Shown: positions 2,348 to 44,348, counted from the stretch's first letter. The stretch: DNA of 64,000 bases from a bacterium (GCA_028821455.1 JAPPGE010000005.1:103030-167029), one strand, 5' to 3'. Made by a program: numbers and translations. The notes: generated by a model not told the origin, from the sequence alone.

Positions 2348-3222
2348 GATGCCTCCTCGGTTTGCCTGTTGTCTGCAAGTATGGCGCCTCGTTCGAGACG
2401 GGCAATGATGTCGTCGAGCTGCTGAAGTGTCCGGTAGGTCAGTGTCAGCTTCCCTCTTTCGCCCTTCGAAGTGATCGCAACCTTCAGGCCGGTTGCCTCG
2501 CCAAGCCGCCTTTCGAGCGCCCGGACGTCGGGATCGACGGACCTTGTCGACCTGCTGCCACTCCCGCGTTGACGGTGATTGCGCACCAGTGCCTCGGTCT
2601 CGCGCACCGACAGTCCTTCCTTCAGGATGCGCGCGGCAAGTGCCTCGGGTTGGCGGGTCCCCAGCAAGGCTCGGCCGTGGCCTGCACTGAGCTCACCCTC
2701 GTTGATCAGCTTGCGCACAGGCTCGGGAAGCTGGAGGAGGCGCAGCGTGTTGGCGACATGGACCCTGCTCTTGCCGACAAGGACCGCCATGTCTTCCTGG
2801 GTCAGGGCGAACTCCTCGTTGAGACGGCGGTAGCCTGCCGCCTCCTCGACAGGGCCGAGGTCCTCGCGCTGCAGGTTCTCGACCAGTCCGTGCTCCAGGG
2901 CCTCGCGGTCACTCATGTCCTTGACGATAACCGGAACATCGTGGAGTCGGGCCCGCTGCGCCGCCCGCCAGCGCCTCTCACCGGCTACGATCTCCATCAT
3001 GCCGTCGGCAGCGGGCCTGACGATGATGGGCTGCATCATGCCGCTGTCCGTAAGGGACCGGGCGAGGCCGTCGATGTCCTCATCGTTGAATCGGGTGCGG
3101 GGCTGAAAGCGACCGGGCTTGAGTTCCGAGATTGAGACAGTCCGCATGCCGGAGGCGGATGTCCTTGCCGGCGTTCCGATGAGCGCGTCGAGGCCGCGTC
3201 CAAGACTTCTAGGTCTCGTCAT
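2344..3222 (-). CDS. parB: chromosome partitioning protein ParB
   Basis: 292 aa with the ParB box GERRWRAA, an HTH region and C-terminal dimerisation. It is immediately downstream of parA. Confidence 0.9.
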   Translation of the reverse strand: MTRPRSLGRGLDALIGTPARTSASGMRTVSISELKPGRFQPRTRFNDEDIDGLARSLTDSGMMQPIIVRPAADGMMEIVAGERRWRAAQRARLHDVPVIVKDMSDREALEHGLVENLQREDLGPVEEAAGYRRLNEEFALTQEDMAVLVGKSRVHVANTLRLLQLPEPVRKLINEGELSAGHGRALLGTRQPEALAARILKEGLSVRETEALVRNHRQRGSGSRSTRSVDPDVRALERRLGEATGLKVAITSKGERGKLTLTYRTLQQLDDIIARLERGAILADNRQTEEAS

Positions 3223-4022
3223 GCGGCACTCTTCGACTGCGTGGCATGGCGGCGCAGGAATTCACCTGCCAGGCGCACGTAGGCCCGCGTTCCCGCACAC
3301 TCAATATCGTATAAAAGCACCGGCTTACCGTGTGACGGCGCCTCGCTCACCCTGACGTTGCGCGGAATGAGCGTACGATAGACGAGATCGCCCATGACGC
3401 GGCGCACATCCCGTTCCACCTCGCGGGACAGGCGGTTCCGGCGATCGAACATCGTGAGCACGATCCCGCCGATATGCAGTCCCGGATTGTGGGTGCCGGC
3501 AATCCTCTCGATGGTGTCGAGCAGGAGCGAGAGACCTTCCAGGGCGAAGAACTCGCACTGCATGGGCACCAGGACCTCGTCGGCGGCCACCAGGGCGTTG
3601 AGCGTCAACAGGCTGAGTGACGGCGGACAGTCGACTAGCACGAACTCATGCCCCGCCATCACCTCGGAAAGCGCCGTTGCGAGAACGCTCTGGCGTTCGG
3701 AAACGTCAACCAGTTCGACATCGGCGCCGGAAAGATCGGCGGTCGCCGGAATGAGGGACAATCCCGGTATCATGGTGGGCGCCGGCGTCACCTTTTCCCC
3801 GTTCAGCAGGTCGTATGTCGTCGCGGTTCTGGCCGAAGGCTCGAAACCCAGACCCGTGCTGGCATTTCCCTGGGCGTCCGCATCGACGACGAGAACCTTG
3901 TGTCCCGTGGCGGCAAAGGCGGTTGCAAGGTTGATGACGGTGGTCGTCTTGCCCACCCCGCCCTTCTGGTTGGCCACGGCCACCACCAGGGGCCGCGCAA
4001 GGCGATCACGGTCGAGAGTCAT
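3219..4022 (-). CDS. parA: chromosome partitioning ATPase ParA/Soj
   Basis: Contains the deviant Walker A motif KGGVGKTT. The start is set at the internal ATG ([22 protein letters not shown]) preceded by AGGA. The ORF-track start at 4061 would overlap rsmG by 56 nt. Confidence 0.85.
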   Translation of the reverse strand: MTLDRDRLARPLVVAVANQKGGVGKTTTVINLATAFAATGHKVLVVDADAQGNASTGLGFEPSARTATTYDLLNGEKVTPAPTMIPGLSLIPATADLSGADVELVDVSERQSVLATALSEVMAGHEFVLVDCPPSLSLLTLNALVAADEVLVPMQCEFFALEGLSLLLDTIERIAGTHNPGLHIGGIVLTMFDRRNRLSREVERDVRRVMGDLVYRTLIPRNVRVSEAPSHGKPVLLYDIECAGTRAYVRLAGEFLRRHATQSKSAA

Positions 4023-4620
4023 GGTGTATCCTGTTGATGACCAGAACGCTGGATTGCTCATCCGAAAGACTGGGGTGTCGCGAGAACCACATGTGCCAGT
4101 GACGGGCGGCGGACTTCAGTTCCTCCTCCACCGACCTTCCCTTGGGGAAAATGGCAACGGAGCCCTCGCCCAGAAAGGGAGCCGTGACGGGCAGGAGAAC
4201 ATCGAGGGGAGCCAGGGCACGGGCCGTCACGACATCGGCCGATGCGCGAGGCAGATCCTCCACGCGCATGCGGTGAATGCCGACATCGACATCGCAGACA
4301 TGGGCTGCGGCATGAAGAAACGCCGCCTTGCTCTCGTCCCGCTCCACCATCTCGACGCCGGCAACCCCCATGATCGCAAGAATCAGGCCGGGCAGACCGG
4401 CACCGGAACCGAGATCGACGAGCCGCCGGCACGTCGGCGGCACATAGCGGGCAATCTGCCCGCAATCGAGAACGTGCCGCGACCATATCTCGTCAACAGT
4501 TCCGGGGCCGATCAGCTTGAGGCGCGATTGCCATTCACCGAGTACGGCAACATAGGCGGCGAGGCGCTCGGATGTCTCCGGCGACGCGCCAAGCAGCCGG
4601 CACACCTCGTCGCGGGTCAC
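4006..4620 (-). CDS. rsmG: 16S rRNA (guanine527-N7)-methyltransferase RsmG (GidB)
   Basis: The C-terminal 204 aa of the ORF-track ORF, with a GTG start that is in GTGA overlap with the mnmG stop. The SAM motif [10 protein letters not shown] is present, and the gene sits in the gidA-gidB-parAB cluster. Confidence 0.85.
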
Positions 4621-6479
4621 GCCGCATCCCGCCTGACGTGGCGGAGCAGGGCCTGCAGGGCGGCAGGTGTCACTCCGGGAAGCCGTGCTGCCTGTCCAAG
4701 CGTGGCCGGGCGGGCGGCTGACATCGTTTCGCGCATTTCCGCAGACAGTCCGCCAATGCGGGCGTAGTCGAGACCGGGAGGAAGATCGAGGGCCTCGTCC
4801 CGGCGGAACGCTGCGATGTCCGCCTCCATGCGGCCCAGGTAACCCCGGTAGCGGCCGGCAATTCTCACCTGTTCCATGGCGTGTTCGGGCCACGACGCGA
4901 TCTCCGGCCACAGGGCCAGCAGTCGTCGATCGTCCCCTGAGGCCGAAGCCGCGAGGTCGAACAGGTTTCGCCGACGGCCATCCCGATTGACATCGAACCC
5001 CGCGGCGCGCGCTTCGTCGGGACTGACCTGTAACGCGCAAGCCCGTGTCATGGCCGTCTCGACCTCCTGTCGGCGTCGGGAGAATGCGCGCCATCGGGTC
5101 TCCCCGACACACCCGGCCTCGCGGCCCTTTGCGGTAAGACGCAGGTCGGCATTGTCGGCCCTCAGGATGAGACGGTACTCCGCCCGGCTCGTGAACATGC
5201 GGTAGGGTTCACACGTCCCCCTCGTGACGAGATCGTCGATCATGACGCCCAGATAGGCTTCTGCCCGGTCAAATCGCACGCCTGGAAGACCTCCCGCGCA
5301 GCGCGCCGCGTTGATTCCGGCGACCAGCCCCTGACCCGCCGCCTCCTCGTATCCCGTGGTGCCGTTGATCTGGCCGGCCAGGAACAAACCTGGTATCCGC
5401 CTTGCCTGCAGCGTGTGATCGAGCTGGCGCGGATCGACGTAGTCATACTCGATGGCATAGCCGTGACGCAGGATGTGCGCCTTGGCAAGTCCCGGAATCG
5501 TGGCGATAAATTTCTCCTGTACATCGCGTGGCAACGACGTCGAGATGCCGTTCGGGTAGACCGTGGCAGTCCGGAGCCCCTCGGGCTCCAGAAAGATCCG
5601 GTGGCTCTCCCGGTCGCCAAACCGCACCACCTTGTCCTCGATGGACGGGCAGTATCGGGGACCGGTTCCGTCGATGCGGCCGGAGTAGACGGGCGCCCGG
5701 TCAAGGTTGGCGCGAATGACGTCGTGCGTGGCCTTCGTGGTGGCCGTCACATGACAGGGAACCTGCGGCACGGTGATGGCGCCGGTCAGCCACGAGAACG
5801 GTTGCGGAGGATCATCTCCGGGCTGAACCTCGAGGGCGGCATGGTCGATGGTCCGTCCATCGATCCGCGGCGGCGTCCCCGTCTTCAGCCTTCCAAGGGA
5901 AAAACGGTGCCTTTCGAGCGTTGCGGCTAGGGCCACGGCGGCGTCATCATCGATCCGTCCCGCCGGCCAGCGCTCGTCGCCGATGTGAATCATCCCGCGC
6001 AAAAATGTTCCGGTGGTGAGAATGACCGCGCGACCACGACAGAGCCTGCCGTCGGCAAGCCTGACACCGGCAATCTCTCCGGCATGGTTGATAGCCAGGT
6101 CGGAGGCTTCGCCTTCGAGGATGTCAAGTTCCTGTTGATTTTCAAGGAGTTCCTGGACCGTCTGCGCATAGAGCGACCGGTCGGCCTGGGCCCTGGGGCC
6201 TCGAACCGCCGGTCCCTTGCTGGCGTTGAGAAGACGGAACTGGATGCCCGAGCGATCGATGGCCAGCCCCATGATGCCGTCCAGGGCATCGATCTCGCGC
6301 ACTAGGTGCCCCTTGCCTAGCCCACCGATGGCGGGATTGCACGACATCGCGCCGATGGTCGAACGGCGCAGGGTCACAAGAAGCGTCGCGGCGCCACATC
6401 GCGCCGCCGCTGCCGCCGCCTCGGTGCCGGCATGCCCGCCGCCAATGACTATGACATCGTGAACGAAGGTGTGCGTCAT
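4617..6479 (-). CDS. mnmG: tRNA uridine-5-carboxymethylaminomethyl synthesis enzyme MnmG (GidA)
   Basis: The FAD motif [15 protein letters not shown] follows the start chosen here ([15 protein letters not shown]). The ORF-track start at 6527 is a GTG lying inside a parS palindrome, so the shorter start is preferred. Confidence 0.85.
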
Positions 6480-6519
6480 GCCTGGAATGTAGTGATGGCG
6501 CTCCGGTGGGTCAAAGCGT

Positions 6520-6535
6520 TGTTTCACGTGAAACT
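6520..6535. other. parS centromere-like site (15/16 match to TGTTTCACGTGAAACA)
   Basis: The sequence TGTTTCACGTGAAACT is read directly between the mnmE stop and the mnmG start. Confidence 0.75.
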
Positions 6536-6536
6536 G

Positions 6537-7844
6537 TCACTTTCCGATGCAGAACTCCGAGAAGATCACGTCGAGAAGGTCCTCCACATCCACCCTGCCG
6601 GTGAGTCGTCCCAGTGCCGTGGCTGCCACACGCAGGTCCTCGGCTGCCAGCGTCACGTCGCCTGCATCCGGACCCCGATAGCGCACCAAGGCGTCCGCGA
6701 CCTGGACAAGCGCAGCCCTGTGCCGGGTCCGCGACGGCGACAGCCCCGCTCCCTGCCAGGCCAGCCGGAAGCGTTGCGCCATGACCTCGACGAGATGATC
6801 GATCCCCTCCCCGGTCTTCGCCGAAAGGCCCGGGATGCCCGGGGGAGGACGGGCGAGGTCAGCCTTTCCGGCCACGACAAGCGCATCCTCATCGCAACGG
6901 GACTCGATGGCGGGCCAGGTCTCCTCCCATCGGCTGGCATCGGCAACGAGCAGCGTCAGGTCAGCCGTCTCCGCTCTCTTCAGCGCCCGCCTGATCCCTT
7001 CTCCCTCGACGCCTTGCGGCACCTCCCGCAACCCTGCGGTGTCGACAAGGGATACGGCAAAGCCGGCGATGTCCATGGTCACCTCGACCGTGTCCCGTGT
7101 TGTCCCCTCCTCCGCAGAGACAATGGCCGCGTCATGTCCGGCGAGGGCGTTGAGAAGACTCGACTTGCCGACATTGGGCGCGCCGAGAATGACGACGCTG
7201 AGACCCTCGCGCAGCCGTTCGCCACGGCGTCCGTCATCGAGGTGGGCGCGAACCTCCTCTTCGAGAACGGTCACCGCTGCCCGGTTGTCGTCGAGGAGTC
7301 CCGCCGGCAATTCCTCGTCGGGAAAGTCGATCACGGCCTCGAGACGCGCCATGGCGTCGACAAGGCGCTGACGCCACTCGTCATAGAGAGCCGAATGCAA
7401 CCCCTGGAGCTGATCGAGAGCCTGACTGCGCTGGCGTGACGTGTCCGCGGCGACAAGGTCCGCCACCGCCTCCGCCTCCACGAGGTCGATTCTGCCATTC
7501 AGCACCGCCCGCCTGGTGAATTCCCCCGGTTCGGCGGGCCGCACGCCAGGCACCGATGCAAGGGCATCGAGAACGCCGTACACCACCGCGCGTCCGCCGT
7601 GGACGTGGAATTCCGCCACATCCTCTCCCGTGACGGTGGCCGGCGCCGGAAACCATAGAACCAGGGATTGATCGATCACGTCTCCCGATCGACTGTCCTG
7701 AAGGTGGCGCAGGACGGCCTGCCGGGCGGCAGGCAGATCCCTGCCGCTGAGGAGCCTCACGGTCTCTCCGGCAGCCGGGCCCGACACCCGGATCACGGCG
7801 ATGGCGGCCCGGCCGGGGGCCGTGGCCAACGCGAAGATGGTCAC
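6537..7844 (-). CDS. mnmE: tRNA modification GTPase MnmE (TrmE)
   Basis: 435 aa with the G-domain motifs GAPNVGKSSLLN and DTAGLR and the C-terminal CIGK tetrapeptide. It has a GTG start. Confidence 0.9.
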   Translation of the reverse strand: MTIFALATAPGRAAIAVIRVSGPAAGETVRLLSGRDLPAARQAVLRHLQDSRSGDVIDQSLVLWFPAPATVTGEDVAEFHVHGGRAVVYGVLDALASVPGVRPAEPGEFTRRAVLNGRIDLVEAEAVADLVAADTSRQRSQALDQLQGLHSALYDEWRQRLVDAMARLEAVIDFPDEELPAGLLDDNRAAVTVLEEEVRAHLDDGRRGERLREGLSVVILGAPNVGKSSLLNALAGHDAAIVSAEEGTTRDTVEVTMDIAGFAVSLVDTAGLREVPQGVEGEGIRRALKRAETADLTLLVADASRWEETWPAIESRCDEDALVVAGKADLARPPPGIPGLSAKTGEGIDHLVEVMAQRFRLAWQGAGLSPSRTRHRAALVQVADALVRYRGPDAGDVTLAAEDLRVAATALGRLTGRVDVEDLLDVIFSEFCIGK

Positions 7845-7860
7845 TGTTTCACGTGAAACA
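7845..7860. other. parS centromere-like site (perfect 16 bp palindrome TGTTTCACGTGAAACA)
   Basis: The palindrome is read directly and abuts the mnmE start codon. Confidence 0.85.
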
Positions 7861-7866
7861 GGGCTG

Positions 7867-8106
7867 TCAGTCGCGCTTTGCCGGGTTCAGCATGTGGCGC
7901 CACATGTCCATCATCTGGTTCATGCCGTCACCAGACGCCCCCGTCCATTCCTTCAGCATGGCTTCGGGGTCGAACCGGGACAGTGCTTCGTTCATGCGTT
8001 CCTTCAGTCCGGCCATGAACTCCTCCTGCAGGGGACGGATGTCCGGCATGCCCAGAAATGCACGGGCTTCTTCAGGCTTACAGTCGATCTTGATTGTCAC
8101 TTTCAT
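7867..8106 (-). CDS. small hypothetical protein (about 80 aa)
   Basis: ORF with an internal ATG start (MKVTIKIDCKPEEARAFLGMPD...). It is Met-rich at the C-terminus and I do not recognise a domain. Confidence 0.35.
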   Translation of the reverse strand: MKVTIKIDCKPEEARAFLGMPDIRPLQEEFMAGLKERMNEALSRFDPEAMLKEWTGASGDGMNQMMDMWRHMLNPAKRD

Positions 8107-8173: not shown

Positions 8174-10213
8174 ATGGTCCTGGATTTCCGGCGCAACAAC
8201 CTCGACGGGGAAACCAGTCCCTATCTCCATCAGCACCGGGACAATCCCGTCCACTGGCAGCCGTGGCGCCAGGAGGTCTTGCAGTATGCCCGGGAACACG
8301 ACAGGCCGATCCTGCTTTCGGTCGGCTACGCCGCCTGTCACTGGTGCCACGTCATGGCCCATGAGAGCTTCGAGAACGACGAGATTGCCGGCGTGATGAA
8401 TGACCTCTTCGTCAACATCAAGGTCGACCGGGAGGAACGGCCGGACATCGACGCCATCTACCAGTCGGCCCTGCAGCTGCTCGGCCAGCAGGGGGGATGG
8501 CCGCTCACCATGTTCCTGACGCCCGACGGGGAACCCTTCTGGGGCGGCACCTACTTTCCGTCGGCACCGAAGTTCGGTCGACCGGGATTCAACGAAGTGC
8601 TGAACGTGGTGGAAACGACTTACCGCAGTCAGCCCGACAGGGTTGAACACAATCGTGCGGCCCTCGCCGAAGCGCTGGCGAAGCTTTCGGCGGGACGGGG
8701 AGACGGCGACATCCCTCACGACATTGCGGACACCACGGCACGGCGTCTGCTCGACATCGTCGACATGCGGTTCGGCGGTCTTGGAGAAGCGCCGAAGTTT
8801 CCCCATGTCCCCGATCTCGACCTGTTGCTGCGCGCCTGGCGGCGGGAGGGAGAAGGGGCGTTCATGCAGGCTGTCGAGGTGTCGGCCGACGCCATGGCCC
8901 GAGGCGGCATCTACGACCATCTCCGGGGGGGCTGGGCACGCTACTCCGTTGACCGCTACTGGCTTGTTCCGCATTTCGAGAAGATGCTCTACGACAATGC
9001 CCTTCTGGTTGACTTCTACACGCGGTTGTGGCTCGTCACCGGAAAGGATCTCTACCGCCGCCGGGTGGAGGAAACCGTCGCCTGGCTGCAGGCCGAGATG
9101 ACCACCGGGGAGGGCGCTTTCTGTTCCAGCCTCGATGCCGACTCCCTGAACACCGAGGGACACGGGGAGGAGGGCGCTTTCTATGTCTGGACAGAGTCGG
9201 AAGTCGACGCGATTCTCGGAGAAGACTCCGCGTTTTTCAAGGAGTTCCATGACGTAAGGCCACACGGAAACTGGGAGGGAAAGACAATCCTGAACAGCCT
9301 TGTCCGGGAGCCCGATGCGGCCGGCGAGATCCGCCTTGCGCCGCTGCGCCGGCGTCTGCTCGAACATCGCGCGGAGCGTCCCCGGCCAGGCCTCGACGAC
9401 AAGGTGCTGGCAGACTGGAACGGTCTGATGATCCGGGCCCTGGCCCGCGCCGGCGCTGCCTTCGGGCGAAGAGAGTGGATCGCCATGGCGCGGCGCGCCT
9501 TCGATCATGTCTCGGGCGCCATGGCGTCAGGGGACCGTCTGGGACACAGCGCGAGGGCCGGCACCACTCTCGATGTCGCGATGATCGACGACTACAGCCA
9601 CATGACCGACGCGGCGCTCATCCTCCATGACGTGACCGGCGACGGAGCCCTTCTTGAACGGGCCCGTGCCTGGGTCCGCGTAGCAGACCAGTTCTACCGC
9701 GACAGCGATGGCGGCGGCTACTTCTTCACGGCCGACGATGCGGATGCGCTCATCGTGCGTACCAAGACGGCCATCGACAATGCCACGCCGTCGGGCAACG
9801 GCACCATGGTCGGCGTTCTGGCCCGGCTGTGGCACCTGACCGGGGAGACAGGGTACCGGGAAAGGGCCGAAGAGATCGTGGCCGCCTTCGCCGGGGACAT
9901 CGCGAGAAACCCCGCCGGCCATGCGGTCATGATTCTCAACATCGATCTCTTCTTGAGGGCGCTCGACGTCACCATCATCGGAACAAGAGGCGAGAAGGCG
10001 ACGGACTCCCTCATTGCCGAGGTGTGGAAGTCTGCACACATGCACCTGGTGCTTCGAGTCATCACGCCGGGAGAGTCCCTGCCCGCGACGCACCCGGCCG
10101 CCGGCAAGGGCGCGGTCGATGGCCGGCCAACGGCCTATGTCTGCCGTGGCCAGACCTGCTCGCTGCCGGTGACGGACGTCGAAAGCCTCGCGCAACTGCT
10201 TCATCAGCCATGA
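8174..10213 (+). CDS. thioredoxin-domain protein of the DUF255/YyaL family (N-acylglucosamine 2-epimerase-like C-terminal domain)
   Basis: 679 aa. The N-terminus (GETSPYLHQHRDNPVHWQPW...SVGYAACHWCHVMAHESFEN) carries the DUF255 CxxC thioredoxin-like signature, followed by a six-hairpin glycosidase-like region. Confidence 0.8.
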   Translation: MVLDFRRNNLDGETSPYLHQHRDNPVHWQPWRQEVLQYAREHDRPILLSVGYAACHWCHVMAHESFENDEIAGVMNDLFVNIKVDREERPDIDAIYQSALQLLGQQGGWPLTMFLTPDGEPFWGGTYFPSAPKFGRPGFNEVLNVVETTYRSQPDRVEHNRAALAEALAKLSAGRGDGDIPHDIADTTARRLLDIVDMRFGGLGEAPKFPHVPDLDLLLRAWRREGEGAFMQAVEVSADAMARGGIYDHLRGGWARYSVDRYWLVPHFEKMLYDNALLVDFYTRLWLVTGKDLYRRRVEETVAWLQAEMTTGEGAFCSSLDADSLNTEGHGEEGAFYVWTESEVDAILGEDSAFFKEFHDVRPHGNWEGKTILNSLVREPDAAGEIRLAPLRRRLLEHRAERPRPGLDDKVLADWNGLMIRALARAGAAFGRREWIAMARRAFDHVSGAMASGDRLGHSARAGTTLDVAMIDDYSHMTDAALILHDVTGDGALLERARAWVRVADQFYRDSDGGGYFFTADDADALIVRTKTAIDNATPSGNGTMVGVLARLWHLTGETGYRERAEEIVAAFAGDIARNPAGHAVMILNIDLFLRALDVTIIGTRGEKATDSLIAEVWKSAHMHLVLRVITPGESLPATHPAAGKGAVDGRPTAYVCRGQTCSLPVTDVESLAQLLHQP

Positions 10214-10241
10214 TGCAATCTATTGTAATCAGGAACTTTTC

Positions 10242-12233
10242 ATGACAGAGACACCCTTTCCCCATGTCTTCCGCCCGGTAAAGCTGCGCGGGCATGAGCT
10301 GAAAAACCGCATCGTTTTCGGAGCCCACACCGCCAACATGTCCGAAGGCGGCCTGCCGCTCGACAGGCACTTCGGATACTACCGGGAACGCGCCCGCGGC
10401 GGGGCGGCGATGATCGTCGTAGAACCGTCGCCGCCGCACCCGACGGCCATCCTCACCCGGGGCAACTTTCTTGCTGATGACGTGGTCATTCCGCATTTCC
10501 GCAAGGTGACCGAAGCCTGCCACGAACACGGCACCGTCATGTGCCACCAAATTTACCATGTCGGCGCCCACGGCGATCAGGACAATTCCTGGACCGCCTA
10601 CTGGTCTCCCTCGGGCCAGGTGAGTCACCACGACCCCTGGGGCAGCCACGTGATGACGGACCGGGAGATCGAGGAACTCGTCGACGCCTTCATCCGGCAG
10701 GCTGAACGCGATCAGGCCTGCGGTTTCGACGGTGTCGACCTCTTCGCCGGCTATTCCTGCCTGATCGATCAGTTCTGGTCGCCTCTGACCAACCGCCGCG
10801 ACGACCGCTGGGGCGGCAGCCTCGAGAACCGCCTGCGTTTCGTGACACGAATCGTCGAGGGCATCCGAAAGACCTGCGGCCAGAACTTCATCGTCGGCAT
10901 GACCGTTTCGGGTGGCGAGCCCTATCCGGGCGGGCTGACCATGACCGACAAGCAGGAGATCTTCGCATGGCTCGACGAGCGCGGCCTGTGCGACTACCTG
11001 TCCTGCGGCGCAGGAAGCTATCTCAACCAGTTCTCGAAGATCGTCCCGAGCTTTCATTTCCCAACACCCCTTGGCCCGGACGAGGCGGGAGAGATCAAGG
11101 ACGTGGTCACACACGCCCTGGTCACCGCCGAGGCGCGCGTGAAGACTCCACAGCGCGCCGAGGAGACGCTTGCCGCCGGCAAGTGCGACCTGGTCTCGAT
11201 CGTTCGCGGCCAGATTGCCGATCCCCACCTCGCCAACAAGGCGGCCAGCGGACGGGAAGAGGACATCCGTCCGTGCATATCGTGCAACCAGCTGTGCATC
11301 GGCCGGCGGCTGCGCGACTACTGGATTTCCTGCCTCGTCAACCCGTCGGTGGGACGGGAAACACTGTGGGATGGCGACAGCGCACCGCAGGTCGACAGTC
11401 CCCGCCACATCCTCGTCGTCGGGGGTGGTCCGGCCGGCCTCGAGACGGCGCGCGTGGCGGCCATGCGCGGTCATCGCGTCACACTTGTCGAGAAGGATGC
11501 CGAGCTCGGCGGCCAGTTCCGCCTTGCGGCCGGTCAGCCGGAAAGGGGAGAGGTCGGCGAGTTCCTGACCTGGTGCAGCCGCCAGCTGGAGAAACTCCAG
11601 GTGCGCGTCATTCTCAACACCGACATGTCGGCCGACGACATCCGAGGCTTCGGGGCGGATGACGTGATCCTTGCGACAGGGTCGGTGCCGACGCGGACAG
11701 GGTTCCAGCGCGCCTTTCCACATGTCGAACGCCTGGAAGGGGTCGAGCAAGACAACGTCATGACGGTCCACGACATTCTTGAGGGCAAGGCGGTTCCAGG
11801 CACCAATGTTCTCCTCCTCGACGACATCAACGGCTGGTGGCCCGCTTCCGGAACGGCACTGCACCTCGCCCTGGAGCGTCACATGGTGACCGTGGTGACG
11901 GCATCCGAGAAAGCCGCCGAACAGCTCGATTTCTCGCGGACCGGCGATACCACCCGCGAGCGGTTCTGGAAGCTCGGGGTCGAGGTCATCTGCGGTCATG
12001 CCTTGAGCGCATGGAAAGGCAACACCGCCACGCTCATGAACCTCTACACCGGGGATACCGAGGAACGCGACTTCGACAGCCTCGTTCTCGCCACCACGAA
12101 CACGGTGGAAGACAGCCTGCGCCGCGAGCTCGCCGATGACGATCTCCGGATTCACAACCTCGGCGATGCCGTCGCCGCACGCACCGCCTCCATGGCCATC
12201 TTCGAGGCCCGCACCCTCGCCATGTCCCTGTGA
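10242..12233 (+). CDS. NADH:flavin oxidoreductase of the 2,4-dienoyl-CoA reductase/OYE family, with a C-terminal FAD/NAD(P)-binding domain
   Basis: 663 aa with an N-terminal TIM-barrel OYE domain, a CISCNQLCIGRR Fe-S cysteine cluster and the dinucleotide motif VVGGGPAGLE. Confidence 0.8.
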   Translation: MTETPFPHVFRPVKLRGHELKNRIVFGAHTANMSEGGLPLDRHFGYYRERARGGAAMIVVEPSPPHPTAILTRGNFLADDVVIPHFRKVTEACHEHGTVMCHQIYHVGAHGDQDNSWTAYWSPSGQVSHHDPWGSHVMTDREIEELVDAFIRQAERDQACGFDGVDLFAGYSCLIDQFWSPLTNRRDDRWGGSLENRLRFVTRIVEGIRKTCGQNFIVGMTVSGGEPYPGGLTMTDKQEIFAWLDERGLCDYLSCGAGSYLNQFSKIVPSFHFPTPLGPDEAGEIKDVVTHALVTAEARVKTPQRAEETLAAGKCDLVSIVRGQIADPHLANKAASGREEDIRPCISCNQLCIGRRLRDYWISCLVNPSVGRETLWDGDSAPQVDSPRHILVVGGGPAGLETARVAAMRGHRVTLVEKDAELGGQFRLAAGQPERGEVGEFLTWCSRQLEKLQVRVILNTDMSADDIRGFGADDVILATGSVPTRTGFQRAFPHVERLEGVEQDNVMTVHDILEGKAVPGTNVLLLDDINGWWPASGTALHLALERHMVTVVTASEKAAEQLDFSRTGDTTRERFWKLGVEVICGHALSAWKGNTATLMNLYTGDTEERDFDSLVLATTNTVEDSLRRELADDDLRIHNLGDAVAARTASMAIFEARTLAMSL

Positions 12234-12690: not shown

Positions 12691-13524
12691 TTACTGCAGG
12701 GAGGCGAGCAAGCTACCCTGCCTCGTCACCGGAGCCACACCGAGCGATTTGAAGATGCGCCAGTAGAGTGCGATGTCGTGCGTGATCACGGGTTTTCCGA
12801 GCATGACCTCGAGTTCGGGCGCCAGACCGCAGAATCGCCGGGTCACGCCGTCGGATGCGCGCCGGAAATGGGCCGTGCCGTTGGCGAGGTAGGCGTCGAC
12901 ATGGGGCGCCTTGTCGGCAACCCAGGCCATGGACTTTTCCGCCAGTTCCTCGTCGAAACAGAATGTCTGGGCGTTGAGCTCCTCCTGGCTGGCGAACCAG
13001 CCCTGGTCGACGAAGTTGCCGGCCCACACGACATCGAAGCCTGCCTCGCGCAGAAAGCCCGCGGTACCCTGCCACCAGTCGGGCCAGTGGTAGACGGCAT
13101 TGAGCGCCACCTTCTCGACGTTGGCCGCATGCAGCGCTTCGACCATGGCGTAGCCCGCCATGTGGAACGCGGTCGCATAGGTCTCGCTCAACCGCTCGAT
13201 GTAGCGGCGGATGCCCTCGACCCCCAGATTCGAGGCATGAACCCAGTTCGAGCCAACCTGGGCGCAGACATCAGCGCCGGCGTTCGCCGCACACTCGACC
13301 ACCTCCTCGAGCAGCGCGAAGTTCTGCAGGCGCTGGTCGAGACGGTGTTCGTAGTCGGGTATGTGCAGCATGCGGCCATGGATTCCAACTGTATCCGGCG
13401 CCATGCGCACGAAGTCCGTCGGCCCCCCGCAATAGTCCCTGGGCGGGCAGGTGAAGACGACCTGGTGGGGAAAGAGCTTGTTGCGCGGATCCTCCCACTG
13501 TGCGGGCTTCCTGTATGGCGGCAA
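12691..13524 (-). CDS. Asp/Glu/hydantoin racemase superfamily protein (arylmalonate decarboxylase / maleate isomerase-like)
   Basis: A TTG start at 13524-13522 is preceded by a perfect AGGAGG at 7 nt spacing. The longer ORF-track N-terminus (starting at 13809) is Arg-rich junk. Family resemblance is to maleate cis-trans isomerase. Confidence 0.6.
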   Translation of the reverse strand: MPPYRKPAQWEDPRNKLFPHQVVFTCPPRDYCGGPTDFVRMAPDTVGIHGRMLHIPDYEHRLDQRLQNFALLEEVVECAANAGADVCAQVGSNWVHASNLGVEGIRRYIERLSETYATAFHMAGYAMVEALHAANVEKVALNAVYHWPDWWQGTAGFLREAGFDVVWAGNFVDQGWFASQEELNAQTFCFDEELAEKSMAWVADKAPHVDAYLANGTAHFRRASDGVTRRFCGLAPELEVMLGKPVITHDIALYWRIFKSLGVAPVTRQGSLLASLQ

Positions 13525-13784
13525 ACTCACACCTCCTATCCCCGTTGAGCCAGGCGGAGCCGGCAAGACGCGAGAAAAGCATGACCGGCAGGCGCCAGGA
13601 TCGCAACCCTGGCGATGCCGTTGCGTCCGGCGCAATACAGGGTCTGCTACGCAGGCATTCCGCGCTCGGGTGCACGTGACCGATCTGGTCGGATGAAGAC
13701 GGCGAGTTTCGTGTTGTTCAGCCTGATCTTTCTTGACACCTTGGCGTCTGCAGTTGCCATCTTGAAAGGACGGGGAAGAACGCC

Positions 13785-14285
13785 ATGACATTCGACAGAA
13801 GACGTGCATTGGGACTGGTCGTCGCCGTCGGGCTTCTGCAGGCTGGCCAGGGCTCGGCCGCTGCAGAAACCGGCAGTTTCGCCCTCACCTCGAGCCTGAC
13901 AAGCCAGTACGCAAGCATCACACACATGGACGGAACGATCTTCAGCGGAACCTCTGAGGGCACGAGCACCATTGTCAGGAGCAGTGGCGAACCCTTCGTC
14001 GAGGGACGATCCATGCAAACGTCGTGCATCGTGTCCGGAAAGACTTCGGCCGCCGGAACTGAACTCGATGGGGCCTGCACCAGCGCGAATTCTTCGGGCG
14101 ACATGCTGTTCTCGATTGCCAAGAGACGTGTGGATGGCGCCGCAGAAGAAGGCGGTGAGGGAGATCTGAAGCTGCTGGGCGGTGCCGGCAGGTTCGAGGG
14201 CATCACCGGAACATGCTCCTACGACACCGACTATCTGACGGAGACGGTCTACGTCACCTGGGCGGAGTGTACCTGGCAGCGATAG
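13785..14285 (+). CDS. exported hypothetical protein (166 aa, Ser/Thr/Gly-rich, 6 Cys)
   Basis: It has an RR-containing signal peptide (MTFDRRRALGLVVAVGLLQAGQGSAAAE) with an upstream GGGGAAG Shine-Dalgarno. The overlapping antisense ORFs look like GC-frame artefacts. Confidence 0.5.
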   Translation: MTFDRRRALGLVVAVGLLQAGQGSAAAETGSFALTSSLTSQYASITHMDGTIFSGTSEGTSTIVRSSGEPFVEGRSMQTSCIVSGKTSAAGTELDGACTSANSSGDMLFSIAKRRVDGAAEEGGEGDLKLLGGAGRFEGITGTCSYDTDYLTETVYVTWAECTWQR

Positions 14286-14354
14286 ACACAATCGGTTCGG
14301 GATCGGCGCACAGCCAGACCGTTGGGTCACGATCTCCTTGAACCACCTGTTCCG

Positions 14355-15389
14355 TCAGGATGACAGCGAGACCCTTTCGCGGGTGGCGGCCACCAACCGG
14401 TCGGCGCAGCGCACCATTCGAATGCGCCCGGCCCTGATTTCGGCTTCCCGCCGGCGCCAGCGTTCGGGAATGCCCTCGAGGCCGAAGCGGGCGCCAAGCA
14501 CGGCACCGGCAATGGCGCCGTTGGTATCGGTATCGCCGCCTGCCTCGATCACCTGGCGCAGACCCTGTTCGAAATCCCTCGCCCGCCAACAGGAAATCAG
14601 CGCTGCCTGGAGAGAGAGCAGCGTGTACCCCATGTCGCGACCGTCGAACTTCAGGTCATCCAGCGTTGAGACCGACGCCTCGTCAACCGCGTCCGCCACA
14701 CTCTGCGGCGCTCGCGTGTCGTAGCCATAGGTCTTAAGTCGCGGCAGGGATGCCGCCATGCCTGCCTCGGCTTCCCTCATCAGCATGTCCGGGCCGAGGG
14801 TCGTGCCAGTGAGAGCTGCGGCAGCGACGAGATTGGCGATCGCGCACGACCAGCCGCATCGCACGTCCCAGTGTGTCGGCACCGCCGAGACCACGCTCTC
14901 GCATACCAGCCGGTCCCTGGCATCGCGCCAGAGGATCGAAAGGGGTGCGGTGCGTATCAGTGCTCCATTCCCGGCGCGGCTACCTTTCCACCCCTTCCGC
15001 GACGCCTCGATGATCGGCATGCCGTCCGGCTTGCGGGGCTTGCCGGTCAGACGATTGCGGGCGAGCCGTTGTGGATAGGCGCCGCCATAGAGCGACAGGA
15101 CAGAGCCGGTCAGCCTGCCCATTCCCGCACCGTTCACTTCCGCCCAGTGCCAGAACCGCCGGCCAAGGTCGTCGATGTCGAGACCGTCTCCACCCGTTGC
15201 CGCTTCGGCAATGATGATGGCCTGCGCCAGATCGTCGTCGTCGGGATACCCGGGTCGTGCAGCGATGTTCTCCATACCCCGGTGAAAGGCCCTGGCGATC
15301 GAGGATCTTGGCCATCCCTCTGTCGTGATGCCGAGGAGATTGCCGACAGCCAGTCCGACCATCAGGCCCCGCGCGCGATCATCAACCAT
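14355..15389 (-). CDS. ADP-ribosylglycohydrolase family protein (ARH/DraG-like)
   Basis: Has the ARH fold signatures (GLMVGLAVGNLLG... DTDTNGAIAGAVLGARFG). Its start overlaps the upstream ARPP-1-like gene by 8 nt, so it is the second gene of the operon. Confidence 0.85.
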   Translation of the reverse strand: MVDDRARGLMVGLAVGNLLGITTEGWPRSSIARAFHRGMENIAARPGYPDDDDLAQAIIIAEAATGGDGLDIDDLGRRFWHWAEVNGAGMGRLTGSVLSLYGGAYPQRLARNRLTGKPRKPDGMPIIEASRKGWKGSRAGNGALIRTAPLSILWRDARDRLVCESVVSAVPTHWDVRCGWSCAIANLVAAAALTGTTLGPDMLMREAEAGMAASLPRLKTYGYDTRAPQSVADAVDEASVSTLDDLKFDGRDMGYTLLSLQAALISCWRARDFEQGLRQVIEAGGDTDTNGAIAGAVLGARFGLEGIPERWRRREAEIRAGRIRMVRCADRLVAATRERVSLSS

Positions 15390-16302
15390 GGTGTGCGCTC
15401 CCGGTGGTGTCGTACGAGAACGAGGCATGGATCAGCGCATCATCCAGGACCAGTGCCTGGCCGGTCAGACGTCGGTCGGTGACCCGGTGTTCGCAGCCGA
15501 GCCCGACACCCGGCGCGGTCCTGGCCGGTGATGTGCTCAGCCGCCTGATGTTCCTGAGGGCAAGTGTGGCTGACGGGCGTCCTTGGGACGGTCTGTTTTC
15601 GATGAAGTGCGACCGGACCAGCGCTCCCCAGTGTTTGCGGAGAAGGTGCGGCGCACCGAAGAGATCCATGGCTGTGACATCCCTGCCGTGCGCCACGACC
15701 ACGCCGCACTGTCCGGGAAGCGGACCACGTTCGACGAGAGCTTCGACGGTCTTCCAGCGGGAGTGATGCCGCCGGTAGGATTCTTCCAGGTCCGCGGCGG
15801 CGCCCGTTGGAGACGCGACACCTTCACGAAGCATCATGGCCGAGATGTCCTCCCAGATGGCGTGCTGGTCGCTCATCCGGTTCCGGTCGACACTGAAGGA
15901 CCTGTTGACGCTTGCCCGTTTCCTTTTCCGGATGCTCTCGGGCGCAAAGGCCTGCGCACGGCGCCATGCCCGGTGGCGTCCCCATCGACCCTGTTCCAGA
16001 CATGATACGGGAATGTCGAGCTTGGATCCGGCCGGAACGAGAACAGTGGCGTTGATGGTGCGATTCTGGTTGCCGCCGGTGAAATGCTCACCCTCGACGA
16101 TCAGGATCGGCTTGTCGGTTGGATTGGTGACCTTGAGGGCTCTCACTGTCGCGACATCGAACTCGCTCACGATCAGTCCCGATGACTCGCCGGTGTCGAT
16201 GGCCGGAAGGGGGTTGTGTGTCAGATAGACGGGGAAGAACGAGACACCGAGGCGCGTGATTGGAGATCCTACGGCGGAGATTTCAAGGCTGGGTATGGTC
16301 AT
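15382..16302 (-). CDS. ARPP-1-like protein (uncharacterised partner of ADP-ribosylglycohydrolase/Nudix modules)
   Basis: 306 aa with an ATG start behind GAGG. The assignment to the computationally described ARPP-1 family is from memory of NUDIX/ARPP-1/ARG gene triads and is not verifiable here. Confidence 0.55.
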   Translation of the reverse strand: MTIPSLEISAVGSPITRLGVSFFPVYLTHNPLPAIDTGESSGLIVSEFDVATVRALKVTNPTDKPILIVEGEHFTGGNQNRTINATVLVPAGSKLDIPVSCLEQGRWGRHRAWRRAQAFAPESIRKRKRASVNRSFSVDRNRMSDQHAIWEDISAMMLREGVASPTGAAADLEESYRRHHSRWKTVEALVERGPLPGQCGVVVAHGRDVTAMDLFGAPHLLRKHWGALVRSHFIENRPSQGRPSATLALRNIRRLSTSPARTAPGVGLGCEHRVTDRRLTGQALVLDDALIHASFSYDTTGSAHHG

Positions 16303-16320
16303 GCTGGCCTCATTCGGTTT

Positions 16321-16369
16321 ATTGTGATACTGACAATTATATGACGCTATATATTGTCATTGCAACAAT
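16321..16369. promoter_or_regulatory. two 17 bp palindromic operators (ATTGT-N7-ACAAT) in the NrtR-like/ARPP-1 divergent intergenic region, overlapping a sigma70-like promoter for the minus-strand operon
   Basis: ATTGTGATACTGACAAT is at 16321-16337 and ATTGTCATTGCAACAAT at 16353-16369. On the minus strand, TTGCAA (16365-16360) - 18 nt - TATAAT (16341-16336) forms the promoter, with the operators sitting on the -35 and -10/TSS. Confidence 0.6.
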
Positions 16370-16403
16370 AAAAGTGGCTTGGTCGAACCAGCGAGGAAAT
16401 ACC

Positions 16404-17261
16404 GTGAATTATCCGCCATTTGCCGTCACCGTCGACATAGCGCTCTTCACCATCGAGGATGACACCTTCAAGATTCTGCTGATCGAGCGTGGCGGTGATC
16501 CCTATCGCGGGGATCTCGCCCTGCCGGGTGGCTTCGTGCTTCCCGATGAGGACCTCGAGGCGGCAGCCGCCCGGGAACTCGAGGAGGAAACCGGTCTCGC
16601 CGAAGGTTCGTGGCACCTTGAACAACTCGCCGCCTATGGCGATCCGGCGCGGGATCCACGCATGCGGACGGTGACCGTCGCCTTCTGGGCCATCACCGCC
16701 GGTCTGCCCCGTCCCCGAGGCGGCGGCGACGCGGCGGCTGCCCATCTCGTGCCCGTGGACGGAATCGAAAGCGGTGATCTTCGTCTCGCCTTCGATCACG
16801 ATCGGATTGTCGGGGACGCGGTGAAACGGATCCGCTCACGACTCGAGACGACGACCATCGCCGCCCAGTTCTGTCCACCCGCCTTCACGGTGGCAGAGTT
16901 GCGCAGGGTCTACGAGACGATCTGGAACACTCCTCTCGATCCGGGGAACTTCCAGAGGTTCGTGCGCGACAGCGGCGTGTTCAGACCCGCACCGTCCGGC
17001 GGACCGGGTGCCCTCGCAGCACCATCCTCGGTCGCTCTCGAATCGGCGCCGTCCCTCGAGCGTCTTGAATCAGGGCAGGAGGTGATGCGTCGAGCGATCG
17101 ACGACGCAGAGAGCGCGCCTTCATCCGATGCGGAGCCGTCCATGGACCTCTCTGGGCCACGACAGCAAAGGCGCGGGCGACCGGCATCGAGATGGATGGT
17201 GCCGGAAGGGCGGCCGCGCCTGCTTGCCCGGCCGCTGCGCCGAAAGACCGGCGACCCGTGA
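16404..17261 (+). CDS. nrtR: NrtR-family Nudix hydrolase-like transcriptional regulator (Nudix domain plus C-terminal winged helix)
   Basis: A GTG start behind GAGG. The Nudix box is GGFVLPDEDLEAAAARELEEETGL, and the C-terminal FTVAELRRVYETIWNTPLDPGNFQRFV matches the NrtR winged-helix hallmark. It is divergent from the ARPP-1/ARG operon. Confidence 0.75.
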   Translation: MNYPPFAVTVDIALFTIEDDTFKILLIERGGDPYRGDLALPGGFVLPDEDLEAAAARELEEETGLAEGSWHLEQLAAYGDPARDPRMRTVTVAFWAITAGLPRPRGGGDAAAAHLVPVDGIESGDLRLAFDHDRIVGDAVKRIRSRLETTTIAAQFCPPAFTVAELRRVYETIWNTPLDPGNFQRFVRDSGVFRPAPSGGPGALAAPSSVALESAPSLERLESGQEVMRRAIDDAESAPSSDAEPSMDLSGPRQQRRGRPASRWMVPEGRPRLLARPLRRKTGDP

Positions 17262-17266
17262 TGCCC

Positions 17267-18451
17267 TCAGGTCGGGTCGAGCGGCACCAGGTCGAGGATG
17301 TTAGCCTGGAAGAAGGTCAGGGAGGTTTCACCGTGGTCGGCCAGTTCACCGGTCTTCATCATCGGGGAACGCAGGGCCTTTTGCTGCTGTTCGACGACCC
17401 ACATGTCCTCGATCTGAAAGTCGAGGGCCTCCATGGCGTGACAGCTCAGCTCATCAAGGGAAATGTAGCGCCGGCCATCCTTCATGATGTGACCATGACC
17501 GCTGGTTCCGCTCCTGTGCCCCTCTTTCTTCGTCTTGCCGTACTTCTCCCGGGGCGCCATCCAGGTGCGCAGTTCGAGGTAGCAGCGCTCCGGGCCTACC
17601 GGCACGATGACGTAGGCCGAAAAGAAGATGGAAGTAGCCAGGACCCCGGAATTGGGAAAGAACTGCCACACGACGGGACGCCGTCCCGACATCGTAGCTC
17701 CGGGTATGGTGGCATGGTGCGATCTCTCCCGGGACGGATTTTCTCCAAAGGCGATAGAAATCCAGTGACGGTGAACCGCATCCCAGTCCTGGTCCTCCAC
17801 GTCGGGACCCATGAGCGTCTTGTCGTGGAGATAGCTCAGGTGATAGCCATCCATCGCGTTTTCGCAGAACACCTTCCAGTTGCAGTGAATGTCGTAGCGG
17901 ATCGGGCGTTTCTCGGACAATCCTTCCAGTGAATGTGGCCACATGTGGGTCGTCTGCATGGATCCGATCCAGGTATCGAACTCCTCGTCGGGCCGAGCCA
18001 TCGGATTGACGAACACGAGATCGCCGATGATTCCGACACTGCCGGCATGCAGCGGCCAGTCCGCCAGGTTCATGCCGGCAAAGCAGAGGTCCTTCTTCGG
18101 CAGTCCGCGCAGACTGCCGTCGTCGATGTTGTAGGTCCACGCATGATAGGGGCAGACGATGCCATGACGGCAGTTGCCCTTCCCTTCCTCGAAGATCTGC
18201 GTTCCCCGGTGTCGGCAGGTGTTGTGATAGGCGCGCAGGGAACCGTCCTTCGTGCGCACGACAATCATCGGATAGCGGTTGATCTGGACCGCCTTGTAGT
18301 CACCGGCATGCGGCACGTCCTGAAGCGTGCAGGCAAAGGTCCAGGAGCGGCTGAACAACTCCTGGTGTTCCCGTTCGAACCAGGCGCTGGAGTAGTAGCA
18401 CTGCTTCGGCAACAGCTGTCGGGCCTCGTTCGGTTTCAGGGGAATGGTCAT
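17267..18451 (-). CDS. Rieske [2Fe-2S] non-heme iron oxygenase, alpha (catalytic) subunit
   Basis: Contains the Rieske motifs CRHRGTQ...CPYHAW. An internal ATG start (MTIPLKPNEARQL) is preceded by GAGGGAG. Confidence 0.8.
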   Translation of the reverse strand: MTIPLKPNEARQLLPKQCYYSSAWFEREHQELFSRSWTFACTLQDVPHAGDYKAVQINRYPMIVVRTKDGSLRAYHNTCRHRGTQIFEEGKGNCRHGIVCPYHAWTYNIDDGSLRGLPKKDLCFAGMNLADWPLHAGSVGIIGDLVFVNPMARPDEEFDTWIGSMQTTHMWPHSLEGLSEKRPIRYDIHCNWKVFCENAMDGYHLSYLHDKTLMGPDVEDQDWDAVHRHWISIAFGENPSRERSHHATIPGATMSGRRPVVWQFFPNSGVLATSIFFSAYVIVPVGPERCYLELRTWMAPREKYGKTKKEGHRSGTSGHGHIMKDGRRYISLDELSCHAMEALDFQIEDMWVVEQQQKALRSPMMKTGELADHGETSLTFFQANILDLVPLDPT

Positions 18452-24941: not shown

Positions 24942-26258
24942 TCAGGTGTTCATGGAGTCGAAGAAATCGCTGTTGTTCTTCGTGCTCTTGAGCTTGTCGA
25001 TGAGAAACTCCATGGCGTCCACGGAACCCATGGGCATGAGAATACGCCGCAGGACCCACATCTTGGCGAGTTCGGCCCGGCCGACCAGGAGTTCCTCCTT
25101 GCGGGTGCCGGACTTGCCGATATCGATGGCCGGGAAGATTCGCTTGTCGGCAATCTTGCGATCCATGACGATTTCCGAATTGCCGGTGCCCTTGAACTCC
25201 TCGAAGATGACCTCATCCATCCTGCTGCCGGTCTCGATGAGCGCTGTGGCAATGATGGTCAGGCTGCCGCCGCCCTCGATGTTGCGCGCCGCCCCGAAGA
25301 ATCTCTTGGGACGCTGCAGGGCATTGGCATCGACACCACCGGTGAGCACTTTGCCCGAGGACGGCACGACCGTGTTGAAGGCCCGTGCCAGGCGGGTGAT
25401 CGAATCCAGCAGGATCACGACATCGCGTTTCTGTTCGACGAGGCGCTTGGCCTTCTCGATCACCATCTCGGAGACGGCAACATGGCGGCTGGCCGGTTCA
25501 TCGAAGGTCGAGGCAATGACCTCGCCCCTGACCTGGCGCTGCATGTCGGTGACCTCTTCGGGACGCTCGTCGATGAGCAGGACGAGAAGGTAGACTTCCG
25601 GATGGTTGCTTTCGATCGCATGGGCGATGTTCTGCATGAGAACGGTCTTGCCGGCACGCGGCGGTGACGTCAGCAGGGCCCGCTGTCCCTTGCCAAGGGG
25701 GGAAATCAGCTCGATGACCCTGGTCGACAGGTCCTTCCGGGTGGGATCCTGGACCTCAAGGCTCAGTTTTTCCTCAGGATAAAGCGGTGTCAGATTGTCG
25801 AACGGCACCCTGTGGCGCGTCGTCTCGGGTTCCTGGAAATTGATGTGGCTGAGCTTGACGAGGGCGAAATAGCGTTCGTTTTCCCGGGGGCTGCGGATCG
25901 TTCCCTCCACCGTGTCGCCGGTCTTGAGGGAGAACCGCCTGATCTGTCCGGGACTGACATAGATGTCATCGGGACCGGGCAGGTAGTTGGCCTCGGGGCT
26001 GCGCAGGAAGCCGAATCCGTCCGGCAACACCTCGAGCACGCCCTGGCCGCTGATCGGCACGTCCTGTTCCGCCATCTCCTTGAGAATGGCGAACATGAGA
26101 TCCTGTTTTCTGAGGACACTCGCTCCCTCGATACCGAGTTCCTCGCCATAGGCAAGAAGCTCCTCGGGTTTGCGATTTTTGAGTTCCTGCAGATTGAGCG
26201 CCCCATGACTTATGGCTGCAAACCCGGTCTGCACATTTTCATTGCCCGTTAAGGTCAT
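24942..26258 (-). CDS. rho: transcription termination factor Rho
   Basis: Has an N-terminal RNA-binding domain, a RecA-like ATPase ([10 protein letters not shown]) and a long leader upstream (26259-26450). Confidence 0.9.
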
Positions 26259-26450
26259 GATGAACCTGCTGAATGGCGATGGGAGATAACGAAACGACGA
26301 ATGTGGTGTGACGTCTCGACAGGGTGTCGAACTGCGTCCCGGAAAGCCGGGTGATTCGACAGAACCGGTGAACGGCCAGGAAAGGGGGGAACCTAGAGCA
26401 GGTCATCCGGGCCTGTCAATTCCGATTCTGAAGCGTCGCGCGATTGCCGG

Positions 26451-31322: not shown

Positions 31323-31398
31323 GACATCCGGCCTCCCTTGTCAGCACTGAAGAATCATAGCACGCAACCTCGATGGGAACGATATCCGGCGTTTCCGG

Positions 31399-31998: not shown

Positions 31999-33040
<1,042 letters not shown>

Positions 33041-44346: not shown

Positions 44347-44348
44347 TC

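Follow-up and report, generated by a model that had tools for sequence, protein, structure and literature searches.

A three-gene unit at positions 14355–17261 of a 64,000-nucleotide stretch of bacterial DNA (GCA_028821455.1 JAPPGE010000005.1:103030-167029, hereafter the window) raises the question of what a regulator of the NrtR type controls when its neighbours are an uncharacterised protein and an ADP-ribosylglycohydrolase rather than genes of NAD metabolism. A first-pass annotation, made from the sequence alone, had placed three genes here in a divergent arrangement, and this was borne out by Pfam and by the gene calls publicly available for the source contig (ROBB21-1_SAMN13943213 scaffold_146; 175,902 bp), which give products of 344, 306 and 285 residues. 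On the minus strand, the gene for an ARPP-1/DUF6569 protein of uncharacterised orphan fold (15382–16302; 306 residues; hereafter ARPP) precedes that for an ADP-ribosylglycohydrolase of the ARH/ARG family (14355–15389; 344 residues; hereafter ARH). The gene for the NrtR-type Nudix-winged helix-turn-helix (wHTH) regulator (16404–17261; 285 residues) is transcribed the opposite way on the plus strand, from a GTG start at 16404 preceded by a GAGGAA ribosome-binding site. Pfam matches were scored on the reading frames 14355–15428 (minus), 15382–16302 (minus) and 16260–17261 (plus), and the gene calls set the shorter starts. The 8-nt overlap of ARPP and ARH that had been claimed (15382–15389, minus strand; ATGGTTGA) was confirmed in the sequence and in the gene calls: the ARPP stop codon occupies 15382–15384, the publicly called ARH start is the ATG at 15389, and the calls at 10001–10921 and 10914–11948 of locus L081 agree with it. 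This overlap suggests that translation of the two genes is coupled. Our favoured answer, to which we assign a probability of roughly 0.55, is that the unit is a self-contained, negatively autoregulated divergon, in which a repressor would sit on its operators until released by a ligand and in which ARH and ARPP would act on ADP-ribose (ADPr).

The 101-bp intergenic region between ARPP and the regulator gene contains two palindromic operators of 21 bp, spaced 32 bp start to start. The ARPP-proximal operator (16319–16339; TTATTGTGATACTGACAATTA) has a GT-N7-AC core and no mismatch to ATTGT-N7-ACAAT, and the ARPP-distal operator (16351–16371; ATATTGTCATTGCAACAATAA) is an exact ATTGT-N7-ACAAT as well; the operator consensus reads T(T/A)ATTGT-N7-ACAAT(A/T)A. 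Both fit the NrtR-family pattern, 21-bp symmetry with a GT-N7-AC core being a feature of the operators in most NrtR groups (Rodionov et al., NAR 2008, PMC2330246). A consensus scan placed a sigma-70-like promoter of the ARPP-ARH operon on the minus strand at 16336–16365 (TTGCAA, 18 nt, TATAAT; 10 of 12 matches) and a weaker, candidate promoter of the regulator gene on the plus strand at 16330–16357 (CTGACA, 16 nt, TATTGT; 9 of 12 matches). The proximal operator covers the −10/start region of the ARPP promoter together with the −35 element of the regulator promoter, and the distal operator covers the −35 element of the former together with the −10 element of the latter, so that a bound protein would occlude both promoters. 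Moreover, since both hexamers of the regulator promoter lie inside operators, autoregulation is implied. Allowing up to one mismatch, no occurrence of ATTGT-N7-ACAAT was found in the 64-kb window outside this intergenic region. An Rfam search of 13500–18000 gave no match, and no convincing terminator was found 3' of ARH (fold z-score 0.41).

The same arrangement recurs far beyond the window. A profile of ARPP homologues yielded 80 loci (L001–L080) from species-representative genomes, all of them uncultured metagenome-assembled genomes (MAGs), spanning Alphaproteobacteria, Paracoccaceae, Vicinamibacterales, Bryobacterales, Spirochaetia, Longimicrobiales, Rhodothermales, Thermodesulfobacteriota and Actinomycetota. 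An NrtR-like gene adjoins ARPP in 75 of the 80, divergently as a rule. The promoter zone holds at least one operator in 75 loci, and at least two lie beside the ARPP start in 67. Altogether, 142 operator sites fell in promoter zones, and the flanking DNA of all loci together held 5, which corresponds to 5.5 vs. 0.005 per kb, a difference of about 1000-fold. The five loci without an operator are also without an adjacent regulator, and one locus (L061) has operator sites and no detectable regulator. In most phyla the −35 element, TTGACA, comes from the right half of the distal operator, and the −10 element, TATTAT, extends into the proximal operator. The retention of operators at these divergons across phyla argues strongly for a regulator that acts on the divergon of which it is part. 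Because the operators sit only at this divergon in 64 kb and are kept in 75 of the 80 related loci, the regulator is probably a local, autoregulated one and not a regulator of NAD salvage, in support of the role first proposed for it. ARH, by comparison, lies within 2.5 kb of ARPP or is fused to it in only 29 loci and is missing from 51. Regulator and ARPP thus make up the conserved core, which ARH joins often but dispensably as a third member.

The statement that no pncA, pncB or nad genes are nearby also holds, as no NAD biosynthesis or salvage gene was found among the genes called within 10 kb on either side. Farther away, at 30171–32049 on the minus strand, a gene of the isochorismatase family adjoins a second Rieske ring-hydroxylating oxygenase, with no NrtR-type operator near. 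The isochorismatase family includes the PncA nicotinamidases; given the lack of an operator, this gene does not contradict the absence of NAD genes under the regulator.

The domain content of the regulator agrees with its assignment to the NrtR type, with matches above the Pfam cut-offs to NUDIX (PF00293; 5.1e-17) and to NrtR_WHD (PF21906; 6.8e-8, 33 bits against a cut-off of 27). With the NCBIfam equivalog for NrtR as repressor of the NAD regulon (NF050029) it scored 110 bits, below the cut-off of 400. Its relatives in the PDB are 2fml, AraR (5bs6) and Shewanella NrtR (3gz5), and the alignment with AraR extends through the wHTH. The regulator carries an intact Nudix box (GFVLPDEDLEAAAARELEEETGL), which fits GX5EX7REUXEEXGU, and the box is likewise complete in 68 of 75 regulator homologues. 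Most NrtRs have a degenerate Nudix box and no activity, whereas the intact box of NuhA is accompanied by high ADPr pyrophosphatase activity; in vitro, two NrtRs were seen to leave their DNA when ADPr was supplied (PMC2330246).

ARPP was identified as a member of the ARPP-1 family by a full-length match to PF20208 (residues 11–295; 5.2e-64, 216.8 bits against a cut-off of 27), as had been suspected. The family, annotated by NCBI as DUF6569, comprises 8104 representative clusters at 50% identity (E ≤ 1e-3). A diverse alignment of 96 sequences, built from representatives at 50% identity, revealed E47, G71, G76, Q79, R81, V99, C101, R106, W107, R125, Q146, W150, G200 and G269 as invariant. Used as input for AlphaFold2, this alignment gave a model with a predicted local distance difference test (pLDDT) score of 95.4 and a predicted template modelling (pTM) score of 0.93; a model from a shallow alignment of 34 sequences reached a pLDDT of 41 and was discarded. 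The fold expected of the family is a duplicated beta-meander core into which a beta-barrel bearing the conserved residues is inserted. At the level of strand and helix order along the chain, and in the clustering of invariant residues in a strand-rich insert (residues 44–115), the model is consistent with this. A fold search revealed no structural relative in the PDB, and no viral one was found in BFVD. The sequence profile matched only DARPins in the PDB, and these matches were rejected as spurious.

No viral or phage homologue of ARPP was present in IMG/VR or INPHARED, and a plasmid search returned only four matches, all distant. On a Pimelobacter plasmid the gene order is ARPP, hypothetical protein, ARH and RecB-like nuclease, and other distant ARPPs have a sigma54/RtcR-like activator, an SNF2 helicase or an ECF sigma factor in their vicinity. 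Members of the family also occur fused to ARH, Nudix, vWA and rhodanese-phosphatase domains. These fusions tie ARPP to ADPr chemistry, although they do not reveal the reaction. Across phyla, ARPP is 52–60% identical. The claim that no ARPP-1 protein has been characterised experimentally is supported by full-text searches of the literature, in which we found no experimental work on ARPP-1 and, beyond one 2022 study (Iyer, Burroughs, Anantharaman and Aravind, Viruses 2022, PMC9503650), no paper on the ARPP domain, PF20208 or DUF6569, as well as by the lack of a PDB match by sequence or fold. ARPP is probably an enzyme that depends on a cysteine, and its target would be the ribose or ribose-phosphate portion of ADPr or of an adduct of ADPr.

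The third protein matched ADP_ribosyl_GH (PF03747; 3.4e-46) over profile positions 1–287 of 287, which leaves its identity as an ADP-ribosylglycohydrolase in place. The metal-site motifs DDDD (residues 50–53) and GGDTDT (residues 284–289) align with those of 2cwc, the best relative in the PDB (2.7e-17), and the protein resembles Thermus ARH, DraG and ARH3. It falls below the equivalog cut-offs for DraG (66.6 vs. 337 bits) and Tri1 (74.6 vs. 490 bits). Among the genes called within 10 kb on either side there is no ADP-ribosyltransferase, sirtuin or macro domain.

The mechanism that we favour can be laid out on the basis of what is known of these families. An NrtR-type repressor, probably one dimer per palindrome, would cover both promoters, keeping the unit off by default. 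A nucleoside-diphosphate-sugar, most likely free ADPr or a close derivative, would bind the Nudix domain and release the repressor from DNA, whereupon ARPP, plus ARH where it is present, would be produced. ARH would then strip ADPr from modified macromolecules, and ARPP would act on the ribose or ribose-phosphate moiety of ADPr or its adduct, perhaps through C101. With its Nudix catalytic box complete, the repressor may in addition hydrolyse the inducer and so reset the switch.

Further support for this mechanism comes from the ARPP fusions with ADPr-related domains and from the Pimelobacter plasmid locus that combines ARPP, ARH and a RecB-like nuclease. The same ADPr-induced de-repression has also been proposed independently for this class of systems (PMC9503650). 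Several observations weigh on the other side. Our literature searches found no biochemical data for any component of the regulator-ARPP subfamily, and the PDB fold search left ARPP without a structural analogue that could anchor an enzymatic role. The second-best PDB match of the regulator is Bacteroides AraR, and Nudix-wHTH regulators can use other ligands; AraR regulates L-arabinose utilisation. An arms race with phages, as a setting for the mechanism, is disfavoured by the lack of a PADLOC match and of a viral homologue, by the metabolic flanks and by the conservation of ARPP across phyla. Finally, the absence of ARH from 51 of the 80 loci means that ADPr released by ARH is not the universal inducer. 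The loop originally envisaged, in which ARH makes the very signal that the regulator senses, is consequently not the general logic of the system: about two thirds of the loci do without ARH, and the regulator-ARPP pair persists.

Where the favoured mechanism leaves room for different triggers, two explanations have to be weighed, and for both the genomic setting is informative. The order Rieske oxygenase, regulator, ARPP and ARH is syntenic in six related alphaproteobacterial MAGs (L001–L005 and L007), and a seventh relative (L006) keeps Rieske fragments, the regulator and ARPP, with no ARH. The GC content of the locus is ordinary and its flanks are metabolic genes. The presence of parA, mnmG, mnmE and rho in the window (3222–7886 and 24945–26402) fits the first-pass annotation in placing the locus near the origin of replication; its description of an accessory-looking block, on the other hand, is not supported by the composition and the synteny. 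A search of PADLOC-DB v2 gave no match for ARH or ARPP, and only a marginal Nudix match for the regulator (0.0023).

One explanation is that the locus is a dedicated antiviral counter-measure, in which a phage ADP-ribosyltransferase would induce the operon and ARH, with ARPP, would strip the modification and restore host functions. This is the published model for systems that combine an ADP-ribosylglycohydrolase (ARG), a Nudix or WYL regulator and ARPP (PMC9503650). With no cognate ADP-ribosyltransferase or sirtuin within 10 kb on either side, the ADPr would come from the action of an outside enzyme. In some relatives, ARPP lies near a helicase with a restriction endonuclease (REase)-like domain (L019) or near the RecB-like nuclease of the Pimelobacter plasmid, and the patchy distribution looks like the product of horizontal transfer across phyla. 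Some genomes, moreover, carry several copies. Against this stand the failure to match PADLOC, the lack of homologues in IMG/VR, INPHARED and BFVD, and the position among metabolic genes near the origin, with synteny in relatives. Moreover, ARPP is highly conserved and not fast-evolving, and most related loci consist of regulator and ARPP only, with unrelated flanks such as sulfatases and enolase-superfamily proteins. No experimental work on ARG/Nudix/ARPP systems, including any protection from viral ADP-ribosylation, was found in the literature. We consider the antiviral explanation unlikely, if still worth keeping in view.

The other explanation retains the regulatory mechanism that we favour and changes the trigger alone. 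In this case a rise in free ADPr, caused by NAD turnover or by an NADase or ADP-ribosyl-cyclase of an animal host, would set off the removal of enzymatic or non-enzymatic ADPr adducts and the detoxification of reactive sugars, as part of a housekeeping or stress response. Such a role is consistent with the ordinary composition of the locus and its stable synteny on the chromosome, with the ability to destroy ADPr that an intact Nudix box would confer, and with strong purifying selection on ARPP. It is also consistent with the origin of the closest relatives, all of them uncultured MAGs and many named like sponge or coral symbiont bins, the window contig itself being from the ROBB21 sponge set. 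A patchy distribution over many phyla would, however, be unusual for a housekeeping function, nuclease and helicase partners occur in some loci, and direct evidence of ADPr exposure in these habitats is lacking. We therefore regard the housekeeping or stress trigger as a tentative proposal, with the odds well against it.

The habitat of these bacteria deserves closer attention here. The bin names APA_, COS, RHO3_, Plut_ and bin36/bin52 point to sponge or coral symbiont metagenomes, and the MAGs named APA_bin come from Aplysina aerophoba. With habitat read from record names, there is an apparent concentration of the closest relatives in sponge- or coral-associated MAGs, and the overall pattern suggests that the regulator-ARPP cassette has moved horizontally within host-associated communities. 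A bolder conjecture, which we hold to be doubtful, would make ARPP, and not ARH, the real conserved effector. ARPP would then represent a new cysteine-dependent fold working on ADPr-derived ribose adducts under a bifunctional repressor that both senses and hydrolyses its ligand, and the two-gene cassette would have passed by horizontal transfer between distantly related sponge and coral symbionts, adapting them to ADPr, cyclic ADPr or NADase chemistry originating from the animal host or from phages.

Considerably less probable is that the regulator senses a pentose or another sugar (or sugar phosphate), as AraR does, with ARPP taking part in carbohydrate metabolism and ARH an occasional passenger. 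The rank of AraR as the second-best solved relative would fit this, as would the sulfatase, enolase-superfamily and GFO/IDH genes that often flank the related loci and the occurrence of ARPP beside polysaccharide deacetylases (PMC9503650). The flanking genes are, however, not conserved between loci, the fusion of ARPP to ARH, Nudix and rhodanese-phosphatase domains argues for ADPr, and a complete Nudix catalytic box is typical of the binding of nucleoside-diphosphate-X compounds. The explanation already disfavoured most strongly, a classical NrtR whose main job would be the control of NAD biosynthesis or salvage elsewhere, with an incidental adjacency to ARPP and ARH, can draw on family membership (Nudix plus NrtR_WHD) and on the linkage of most NrtR genes studied in 2008 to NAD genes (PMC2330246), but is rendered very improbable by the restriction of both operators to their own divergon in 64 kb, by the ARPP pairing and operators kept in 75 of 80 loci across phyla, by the lack of a NAD gene within 10 kb on either side and by the low equivalog score.

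The related loci show further variety. Their other flanking genes are heterogeneous (sulfatases, an enolase-superfamily protein, an IS481 transposase, a GFO/IDH oxidoreductase), and the helicase near ARPP in L019 is an HTH-SNF2 helicase-NOV_C protein. Recurrent neighbours of 500 residues were considered as transposases and rejected as such, being sulfatases and periplasmic binding proteins. The ARPP proteins of the 80 loci are 50–93% identical despite coming from at least eight phyla or classes. Several cassettes may occur in one genome: L051, L055 and L056 belong to one Vicinamibacterales MAG (CAXXVU020000002.1), where L055 and L056, both with ARH downstream of the regulator, appear to be exact copies of each other, and L009 and L010 belong to one alphaproteobacterial MAG. 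Two tandem ARH genes are found in L008. In Acidobacteria loci, genes 3' of ARPP recur that encode proteins of about 247 (L013, L029, L039), about 320 (L036, L055, L056) and about 315–445 residues (L013, L029, L034, L039). None of these recurrent genes gave a match in Pfam; they may correspond to the chaperone-like partners without annotation of which the 2022 study speaks.

Within the window, the gene at 13785–14285 on the plus strand, convergent with ARH, encodes a protein of 166 residues that has an RRR-containing signal-like N-terminus and four Cys and gave no match in Pfam, NCBIfam or PADLOC. As it is kept beside the module only in L001, L002 and L005, it probably does not belong to it. 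A protein of 833 residues (35752–38250, plus strand), some 20 kb away from the module, combines a PLD-like nuclease with ResIII/SNF2-type helicase domains, an architecture like that of defence or restriction proteins. A protein of 1216 residues with an N-terminal AAA_27 domain, similar to SbcC/YhaN (44172–47819, plus strand), may be a repair or defence ATPase.

Comparison with known systems indicates that the module is not a new idea, its novelty having been overstated: nrtR-draG was reported in 2008 (PMC2330246) and the combination of ARG, a Nudix or WYL regulator and ARPP in 2022 (PMC9503650). The window locus is a minimal representative of this computationally predicted type. In section 3.8 of their study, Iyer and colleagues set out ARG-centred systems whose other components include Nudix-HTH or WYL repressors, phosphatases, chaperones, REases and ARPP; about half of these systems have a coupled phosphatase and/or chaperone. 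ARPP received its name there, together with remarks on its conserved Cys and Gln and its novel fold, and ADPr-induced de-repression was modelled as a means to counter viral ADP-ribosylation (PMC9503650). In common with these systems, the window locus has an ARG without a coupled ADP-ribosyltransferase, a presumed Nudix-HTH negative regulator, and an ARPP with the conserved Cys (C101) and Gln (Q79, Q146). Unlike them, it contains no rhodanese-type or other phosphatase, chaperone, REase or helicase, and the invariant pair in its subfamily is regulator plus ARPP, with an ARG in only 29 of 80 loci. The 2022 study listed no two-gene neighbourhood of Nudix regulator and ARPP and did not define an operator.

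In Streptomyces, nrtR1-draG-SCO1765 has been assigned, with predicted NrtR sites, to 'reversible protein ADP-ribosylation', and nrtR<>nrtX-nrtY divergons without an assigned function were listed for Streptomyces, Kineococcus, Frankia, Proteus mirabilis and Hahella (PMC2330246, Table 1). These, like the window locus, place an NrtR-family regulator beside an ADP-ribosylglycohydrolase or unknown genes, although nrtR1-draG is an operon in Streptomyces and the window unit a divergon. The product of nrtX may be ARPP/DUF6569, which would put the association at 2008. With the canonical NrtRs of Shewanella oneidensis, Synechocystis and Mycobacterium the regulator shares the Nudix plus wHTH architecture, a 21-bp GT-N7-AC operator and, in all likelihood, an anti-repressor mechanism based on ADPr. 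It differs from them in targets that are not NAD genes, in a score below the NCBIfam equivalog and in its intact Nudix box, which is degenerate in the characterised repressors. As in DraT/DraG and Tre1/Tri1, where DraG and Tri1 have this part, an ARH-fold hydrolase would remove ADPr from a modified target; in contrast to those pairs and to DarT/DarG, there is no partner transferase near the window ARH. DarG, moreover, is a macro-domain enzyme and not an ARH. Bacteroides AraR (PDB 5bs6) resembles the regulator as a Nudix-wHTH protein of a non-NAD operon, and differs in controlling L-arabinose utilisation rather than ADPr or NAD metabolism.

What is new here is the operator and promoter design, the recognition of regulator plus ARPP as the invariant pair, the conserved catalytic Nudix box, a high-confidence model of ARPP with negative fold searches, and the apparent concentration of the relatives in sponge and coral MAGs. 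As the concept has already been published, the value of the locus lies in tractability and not in discovery. ARPP-1/DUF6569 is a family of about 8100 clusters at 50% identity with no solved structure or structural analogue and no experiments in the literature, and this locus, with its defined operator and promoter, probable ligand, confident model and few invariant residues, offers a clean entry point to it. Learning what ARPP does would test the sole published hypothesis of bacterial systems dedicated to undoing foreign ADP-ribosylation.

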